DNA of 64,000 nucleotides from Escherichia coli (GTDB lineage: Bacteria; Pseudomonadota; Gammaproteobacteria; Enterobacterales; Enterobacteriaceae). Shown in pieces: positions 18,933-20,478 of the stretch. The first letter of the stretch is position 1, and the number at the start of each line of letters is the position of its first letter. Made by a program: the position numbers and the translations under genes. The notes under the pieces were generated by a model. The model searched no databases and was not told the origin of the DNA. It was given only the letters and a program-made list of their open reading frames with translations. The stretch lies in assembly GCF_003334305.1 (NCBI RefSeq), contig NZ_QOWS01000002.1; one strand, given 5' to 3'.

Positions 18933-19868
18933 TTATTTCACTTCAACCACATTCAGCCGTAACTCATCCAACTGATTTTCATCTTCTTCTGGCTGCCAGC
19001 CCGCCGGTTGTAGTGGGATCTCTTCGCGATCAAACGCCAGATCACCCCCGTTAACCACTTCAGAACCGTGGGTAATGCCTTTGAAATCGAACAGGTTGGT
19101 ATCGCACAGATGCGACGGCACCACATTCTGCATCGCGCTGAACATCGTCTCGATACGCCCTGGATAACGTTTATCCCAGTCACGCAACATGTCAGCAATC
19201 ACCTGACGTTGCAGGTTAGGCTGTGAACCGCACAGGTTGCACGGAATAATCGGGAACGCTTTTGCATCGGCAAATCGCTGAATATCTTTCTCGCGGCAGT
19301 AGGCCAGCGGACGAATAACGATATGTTTGCCATCATCGCTCATCAGTTTCGGAGGCATACCTTTCATCTTGCCGCCGTAGAACATATTTAAGAACAACGT
19401 TTGCAGGATATCGTCACGATGGTGACCCAACGCGATCTTCGTCGCCCCCAGTTCCGTTGCGGTACGATAAAGGATACCGCGACGAAGGCGAGAACACAGT
19501 GAGCAAGTGGTTTTGCCCTCTGGAATCTTCTCTTTCACGATACCGTAAGTATTCTCTTCAACAATCTTGTACTCAACGCCCAGCTTTTCAAGATACTCGG
19601 GCAGAACGTGTTCCGGGAAGCCCGGTTGCTTTTGATCGAGGTTAACAGCCACCAGCGAAAAATTGATTGGCGCGCTTTGCTGCAAATTGCGCAGAATCTC
19701 CAGCATGGTATAGCTGTCTTTACCCCCGGAGAGGCAAACCATGATGCGATCGCCTTCTTCAATCATATTGAAGTCAGCAATGGCTTCGCCCACGTTACGA
19801 CGCAGACGTTTTTGTAATTTGTTCAGGTTGTATTGTTCTTTCTTACTAATTTCTTGATTTTGCGACAT
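18933..19868 (-). CDS. ttcA: tRNA 2-thiocytidine biosynthesis protein TtcA
   Basis: 311-aa ORF with PP-loop SGGKDS and CxxC pairs. Confidence 0.9.
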
Positions 19869-20009
19869 TTAAAAGCGACTCAATTCGTTATATGGCATCA
19901 GAAGAGTATGCGTCATGCCGGAACGCCCAGCATAAGAAATCTGATATAAAAACTGTGGCGTGTATGGTACGGATTAGAGGGGAAAATGTCAGCACATTTG
20001 CGAAATGAA

Positions 20010-20037
20010 TCAAAAAGCCCGCAGCAATGTGCGGGCG
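20010..20037 (-). terminator. Rho-independent terminator of uspF
   Basis: GCCCGC...GCGGGC hairpin; T-run on the minus strand (A5 on plus at 20012-20016). Confidence 0.6.
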
Positions 20038-20043
20038 TTAGTG

Positions 20044-20478
20044 TCAGCGCACAACCAGCACGGAGCACTCTGCGTGACGCACTACAGCTGCGGCGTTGGA
20101 ACCGAGCAGATAAGTGGTGATATCCGGTCGATGGGAAGCAATGATGATCATATGAGCGGGGATCTTCTTCGCCATTTCCAGAATGCGGTCTTTGGGCGAG
20201 CCTTCCTCAACATGGACATGCACTCTGTCGGTTGGCAGTTTAAATTTTTTAATGATCTCTTCCAGTTGCGATTTGGCTTCCGCTTTCAGGTCATCCATTG
20301 CCGGTAATTCTGCGGAATACGCTAAACCCAGAGAGGCATAGTAGGGCAGTGAAGGTATTACCGTCAGGAAATGAACCTCTGCATCATCAATCTTTGCCTC
20401 TGCCTCAACGTGGCTAATCACGCGTTGAGTTAATTCTGAATCGGAAATATCGATAGGGACAAGAATCGTTCTGTTCAT
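20044..20478 (-). CDS. uspF: universal stress protein F
   Basis: Track ORF 20044-20550; start trimmed to [10 protein letters not shown] (144 aa). Confidence 0.85.

Follow-up and report, generated by a model that had tools for sequence, protein, structure and literature searches.

In Escherichia coli K-12 the cryptic prophage Rac lies between the genes ttcA and uspF, which are direct neighbours in the 64,000-nucleotide stretch of E. coli DNA analysed here (the window). The locus thereby raises the question of whether this adjacency represents the unoccupied integration site of Rac, where its recombination core lies, and which form of the TtcA protein it specifies. From its first base to base 48,977, the window matches the genome of E. 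coli strain A7, from orangutan faeces in the USA (NZ_CP028767.1, from position 2238024), without a single difference, and the annotation of the remainder is consistent with the same strain. The nearest other genome sampled is that of the O43 strain RM10042, with an identity of 99.6% on the left and 98.7% on the right.

Between positions 18700 and 20800 the minus strand carries, in this order, ompN, uspF, a terminator and ttcA, while the plus-strand gene dbpA converges from the left. The ttcA-uspF interval is composed of the following features:

18933..19868, minus strand: ttcA, encoding tRNA 2-thiocytidine(32) synthetase in its ancestral (TtcA') form, assigned from the 311-aa ORF and NF007972
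19869..20043, no strand: native uspF-ttcA intergenic region, exactly 175 bp
20017..20036, minus strand: uspF intrinsic terminator, with a 7-bp GC-rich stem and a U-tract
20044..20478, minus strand: uspF, encoding universal stress protein F, 144 aa, assigned from the RefSeq annotation and NF011581

The TtcA translation scored 513.6 bits against the NCBIfam equivalog NF007972 (cut-off 272), with residues 3–290 covered; it presents the PP-loop motif SGGKDS at residues 47–52 and corresponds to RefSeq protein WP_000081418.1 of strains A7, RM10042, EC0585 and ATCC 43889. UspF scored 303.3 bits against NF011581 (cut-off 166) over residues 1–144 of 144, and the longer, GTG-initiated ORF in the program-made list extends the RefSeq gene upstream. 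The original prediction, made by reading the sequence, had placed ttcA and uspF about 175 bp apart, with the uspF terminator and gene directly following ttcA, and both points were borne out. The gap has exactly that length, and the terminator hairpin, which begins three bases past the uspF stop codon, folds with a dG of -14.1 kcal/mol (z = -3.75), a stability reached by none of 200 shuffles.

An Rfam scan of positions 16900..20700 for small and regulatory RNAs, at E <= 1, gave no match in the 175-bp gap. The same scan returned FnrS, upstream, and a sub-threshold match to naRNA4 at 18849..18885 on the plus strand (21.6 bits versus a gathering score of 59.5; E = 0.99). This element is a REP-like palindrome of the dbpA-ttcA intergenic region and is probably just a REP sequence.

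For K-12, it had been stated that Rac occupies the interval between ttcA and uspF, having entered the 5' end of ttcA and displaced a ttcC fragment, and the annotation of MG1655 agrees. The prophage is annotated there at 1411899..1434958; at its left end are ttcA (1411013..1411948) and intR (1412000..1413235), and at its right end the 51-bp pseudogene ttcC (1434958..1435008) is followed by uspF. To the left and right of this interval, window and K-12 run collinear, with about 99% identity, and the interval itself is missing from the window. A lack of homology between the adjacency and the K-12 Rac site, whether through misidentified genes or through a location of Rac elsewhere in K-12, is very improbable: TtcA and UspF are far above their NCBIfam cut-offs, the K-12 flanks are collinear, and the K-12 annotation places Rac exactly at this point.

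The alignment with the K-12 junctions that the original prediction had proposed for finding the attB core was run, and it located a 26-bp core within the ttcA coding sequence, which defines the following features:

19819..19844, no strand: attB core, 26 bp (TTGTTCAGGTTGTATTGTTCTTTCTT), inside ttcA codons 9–17, from the three-way alignment
19845..19868, minus strand: ttcA codons 1–8, swapped for phage-borne sequence upon Rac-like integration
19818..19868, minus strand: equivalent of the K-12 ttcC pseudogene, i.e., the first 17 codons of the ancestral ttcA, from blastn and translation

The core is the sole block that is identical across the window and the K-12 attL and attR junctions. Left of it, the window tracks K-12 attL, with the body of ttcA; right of it, the window tracks K-12 attR, with ttcC, the intergenic region and uspF. 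The same 26-bp stretch is annotated as both attP and attB in GenBank record KU052037.1, the phage Rac-SA53, which was deposited with its host flanks. One exact copy of the core is present in the window, where no second or degenerate copy was found at up to three mismatches, and none of 100 shuffles gave any match at this threshold. The site had initially been delimited as 19850–20060; its existence was confirmed, but the recombination core lies 6 bp to the left of that range.

An in-silico excision of Rac, in which the K-12 left flank, the attR core and the right flank were joined, produced a sequence identical to window positions 19720..19952 over 233 nt. Beyond this identity, the next difference is only the length of an A run (19948..19952), which is A5 in the window and A6 in K-12; apart from it, K-12 has the same 175-bp intergenic region on the right-hand side of Rac. 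When the 23.3-kb K-12 Rac locus was compared with the whole 64-kb window by blastn and tblastx, just the two bacterial flanks matched. No integrase, excisionase or phage genes were found between ttcA and uspF or elsewhere in the window, and in RefSeq the corresponding, identical stretch of A7 is annotated with core chromosomal genes only and no phage genes, so that the claimed lack of such genes holds. A duplicated core, prophage remnants or a different location of the K-12 Rac site had been named beforehand as evidence against the original prediction; there is no core duplication and no prophage remnant here, and the K-12 site is not elsewhere. We conclude that 19819..19844 is almost certainly the unoccupied attB for Rac-family lambdoid prophages, located in the 5' part of ttcA, with the genes in the ancestral order dbpA-ttcA-uspF-ompN.

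The N-terminus of the window TtcA (MSQNQEIS...) is equal to the translation of the K-12 ttcC remnant over residues 1–17. Because of this identity, the window, as judged from its sequence, holds the stretch that was displaced by Rac in K-12, which is of the host (ttcC/TtcA') type and not phage-supplied. In relation to K-12 TtcA, residues 2, 3, 6 and 8 differ (S/Q, Q/E, E/Q and S/T, respectively), as does residue 290 (G/C). At codon 290 (18999..19001), G290 is present here and in the other strains examined, and C290 in MG1655.

The N-terminus was also compared with those of Rac-positive strains, as had been suggested, and the occupied genomes presented MQENQQIT, MQENQKNT or MKENQQIT. The first is found in K-12 and the last in the vB_EcoS-683R6 record, while MQENQKNT occurs with Q12 in isolate 30821_1#335 and with I12 in O145 RM9873 and Rac-SA53. 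At least four phage-type N-termini were seen in total, and different Rac-like prophages install different ones. The differences between the TtcA proteins of empty and occupied sites are all in residues 2–8, plus residue 12 in the SA53 type.

The original prediction had also pointed to an uninterrupted 311-aa ttcA ORF. This is true of the window but not diagnostic of an empty site, since the ttcA of K-12 is likewise an intact 311-aa ORF, for which Rac provides the replacement 5' end; the protein has the same length in both forms because the phage DNA next to the core bears a substitute start. The proposal that the N-terminus is ancestral and not prophage-encoded fared better, as it is supported by the ttcC translation and agrees with the work of Liu et al. 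(2015, Sci Rep 5:16074, PMC4632033). These authors identified the excisionase of Rac and reported that IntR and XisR drive conservative site-specific recombination at the ttcA site. Experimentally, the excision of Rac in K-12 changed four N-terminal residues of TtcA, which was attributed to the imperfect match between attL and attR (PMC4632033). Their paper also covers Shigella and Salmonella. In their comparison of 27 strains, those without a Rac-like prophage at ttcA carried TtcA' and those with one carried the K-12-like form; TtcA' was concluded to be the ancient copy, and a functional difference between it and the Rac-type TtcA was described under carbenicillin (PMC4632033).

The composition of the N-terminus bears on another possible origin of the locus, in which illegitimate deletion or decay eliminated a prophage and left remnants or a hybrid ttcA 5' end. 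This origin has practically no likelihood and is ruled out by the single core, by the lack of similarity to Rac outside the flanks at both the DNA and the protein level, by an N-terminus that is purely of the ttcC type, without phage-type residues, and by a junction that equals the precise excision product base for base.

The following model would account for the two forms of the locus. In strains like K-12, the tyrosine integrase IntR would recombine the phage attP with the ttcA core, and the DNA adjoining attP would supply a substitute ttcA start, made up of about eight codons and new upstream sequence. After integration, ttcA still has its full 311 aa, with a phage-encoded N-terminus, and the first 17 native codons and their upstream region end up beyond the prophage, as ttcC by uspF, at a distance of about 23 kb in K-12 and 52 kb in the case of Rac-SA53. 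The window bears no trace of such an integration, and its ttcA retains its own N-terminus, its 175-bp upstream region and the uspF terminator. The site is predicted to be competent for IntR-mediated integration, since its sequence equals that of sites where other strains carry a prophage.

The position of strand exchange may be narrowed by comparing attL and attR pairs, which was done for two prophages, K-12 Rac and Rac-SA53. The attL and attR of Rac-SA53 differ from each other at core positions 16–18, and one segment of the core is thus of particular relevance:

19819..19833, no strand: 15-bp segment TTGTTCAGGTTGTAT, the one stretch within the core where attL equals attR in both K-12 Rac and Rac-SA53

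Because these natural variants agree only there, strand exchange would fall within these 15 bp on the left of the core. The segment does vary between genomes: EC0585, at an empty site, and O145 RM9873, at attL, have a G-to-A substitution at window position 19827, which is synonymous in EC0585. We tentatively suggest, as a reading with somewhat less than an even chance, that strand exchange is confined to this segment and that each Rac-like phage installs its own TtcA N-terminus, lysogeny acting as a recurrent swap. If this were true, lysogeny would exchange the first 8–12 residues of a tRNA-modification enzyme together with the region upstream of its gene, and the empty site of the window would be the reference state for gauging any functional effect. 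A search of the phage collection with the reconstructed Rac attP returned no record covering at least 80% of it; the relevant records, Rac-SA53 and vB_EcoS-683R6 among them, derive from prophages and include flanking host DNA.

Integration would also affect the region from which ttcA is transcribed. A consensus scan of the native upstream region gave a single candidate:

19964..19992, minus strand: candidate ttcA promoter, weak and sigma-70-like (CTGACA-17-TACCAT)

This candidate has 9 of 12 consensus matches, and its occurrence (1 found versus 0.8 expected in shuffles) is not above chance. The native ttcA promoter is presumably in the 175-bp region, and in the empty state a promoter belonging to ttcA itself, placed past the uspF terminator within 19869..20016, would drive the gene. 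In lysogens with the K-12 arrangement, ttcA is 51 bp downstream of intR, and at the K-12 intR-ttcA junction, scanned in the same way, neither a promoter-like nor a terminator-like site was detected; for these two reasons, Rac-type integration probably alters the mode of ttcA transcription as well.

The frequency of the two states was assessed in 5,426 complete E. coli genomes. A 2.1-kb query representing the empty state (dbpA'-ttcA-uspF-ompN'), required to be at least 80% covered in one place, was contiguous in 2,488 genomes (about 46%) and was split after ttcA in most of the remaining ones. The query for the K-12 ttcA-intR junction was contiguous in 2,908 genomes. Together the two classes make up 5,396 of the 5,426, so that almost all genomes fall into one of them. 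In the occupied genomes that were sampled, intR-xisR-ralR-recT lie next to ttcA.

These frequencies are relevant to the history of the site, which could have been formerly occupied by a Rac-like prophage and restored by precise IntR/XisR excision, so that A7 would belong to a cured lineage. This is a rival on history only, and not on what the sequence is. Conservative excision regenerates exactly the window sequence, both in the in-silico product and in the K-12 experiment (PMC4632033), both states are common, and the O157:H7 strain ATCC 43889 is empty, yet EDL933 and Sakai carry CP-933R and Sp10, respectively, at this site (PMC4632033). The presence of both states within closely related O157:H7 backgrounds suggests frequent gain and loss of prophages at ttcA. 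On the other hand, precise excision is scarless and the window sequence is therefore neutral on history, a never-occupied site and a restored one being indistinguishable from sequence. We consider a cured lineage rather unlikely; under either history, the locus is read as an unoccupied attB.

The remainder of the window presents other differences from K-12. A 3,308-bp deletion in the paa operon, in relation to both K-12 and RM10042, has its junction at window positions 38100/38101. Lost with it are 401 bp from the 5' end of paaZ, the divergent promoter region between paaZ and paaA, the genes paaA, paaB, paaC and paaD, and the initial 120 bp of paaE; these fragments are left:

36456..38099, minus strand: paaZ' remnant
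from about 38101: truncated paaE

The junction shows no microhomology and was found in 1 of the 5,426 complete genomes, that of A7 alone, being thus private to this strain. The deletion should abolish phenylacetate catabolism. Between paaY and pdxI, 12 unrelated bases (GTCCAGATACTG, 46614..46625) replace the 8.9-kb K-12 ynbG/ydbA autotransporter pseudogene region with IS2 and IS30, and RM10042 presents the same arrangement of the ydbA region as the window. In the ynaI-ynaJ intergenic region, at about 5159..5162, the IS5F of K-12 is absent and a single CTAA target is found, which is duplicated around IS5 in K-12. At 62332..63333, on the minus strand, a gene for a type I glyceraldehyde-3-phosphate dehydrogenase ("gap") lies at the position of gapC, with aldA and cybB on either side, and its annotation in A7 is that of an intact gene; gapC is a pseudogene in K-12. 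Three small RNAs scored above the Rfam gathering score, at the positions expected from K-12:

13576..13671, minus strand: McaS
17049..17166, plus strand: FnrS
21977..22097, plus strand: MicC

The empty site marks strain A7 as being without a Rac-like prophage at ttcA and hence, at this locus, without Rac cargo such as recET, kilR, ralR/ralA, racR and trkG. A7 encodes the host-type TtcA, which was reported to differ from the Rac type under carbenicillin (PMC4632033), and Rac-family phages could potentially use the site as a landing pad. The empty Rac site is already known (Liu et al. 2015, PMC4632033) and is very common, so that the observation is correct but ordinary. The counts of 2,488 empty and 2,908 occupied sites among 5,426 genomes update the earlier 27-strain comparison (PMC4632033) and leave its conclusion unchanged; beyond correct annotation, the significance is slight.

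In comparison with known systems, the target gene and core of the window are those used by Rac in K-12, by Rac-SA53 and by CP-933R/Sp10 in O157:H7 (PMC4632033). In these occupied sites, an integrase-excisionase module adjoins ttcA, the N-terminus of TtcA is of the phage type and ttcC is displaced; the prophage takes up about 23 kb in the case of K-12 Rac and about 52 kb in that of Rac-SA53. The window has none of these features. Among empty sites, RM10042 is 100% identical over window positions 18700..20800. The gene order, the 175-bp spacing and TtcA WP_000081418.1 of the window are identical in RM10042, EC0585 and O157:H7 ATCC 43889, whose empty loci differ from it only by single-base polymorphisms. 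Some of these backgrounds are distant, with DNA identities of 98.1% for EC0585 and 98.8% for ATCC 43889, and the TtcA protein is identical in both. The delta-rac derivative of K-12, which carries TtcA' (Liu et al. 2015, PMC4632033), has the same locus, 26-bp core, N-terminus and uspF-side flank as the window, from which it differs by its A6 instead of A5 run, by C290 instead of G290 in TtcA, and by its strain background.
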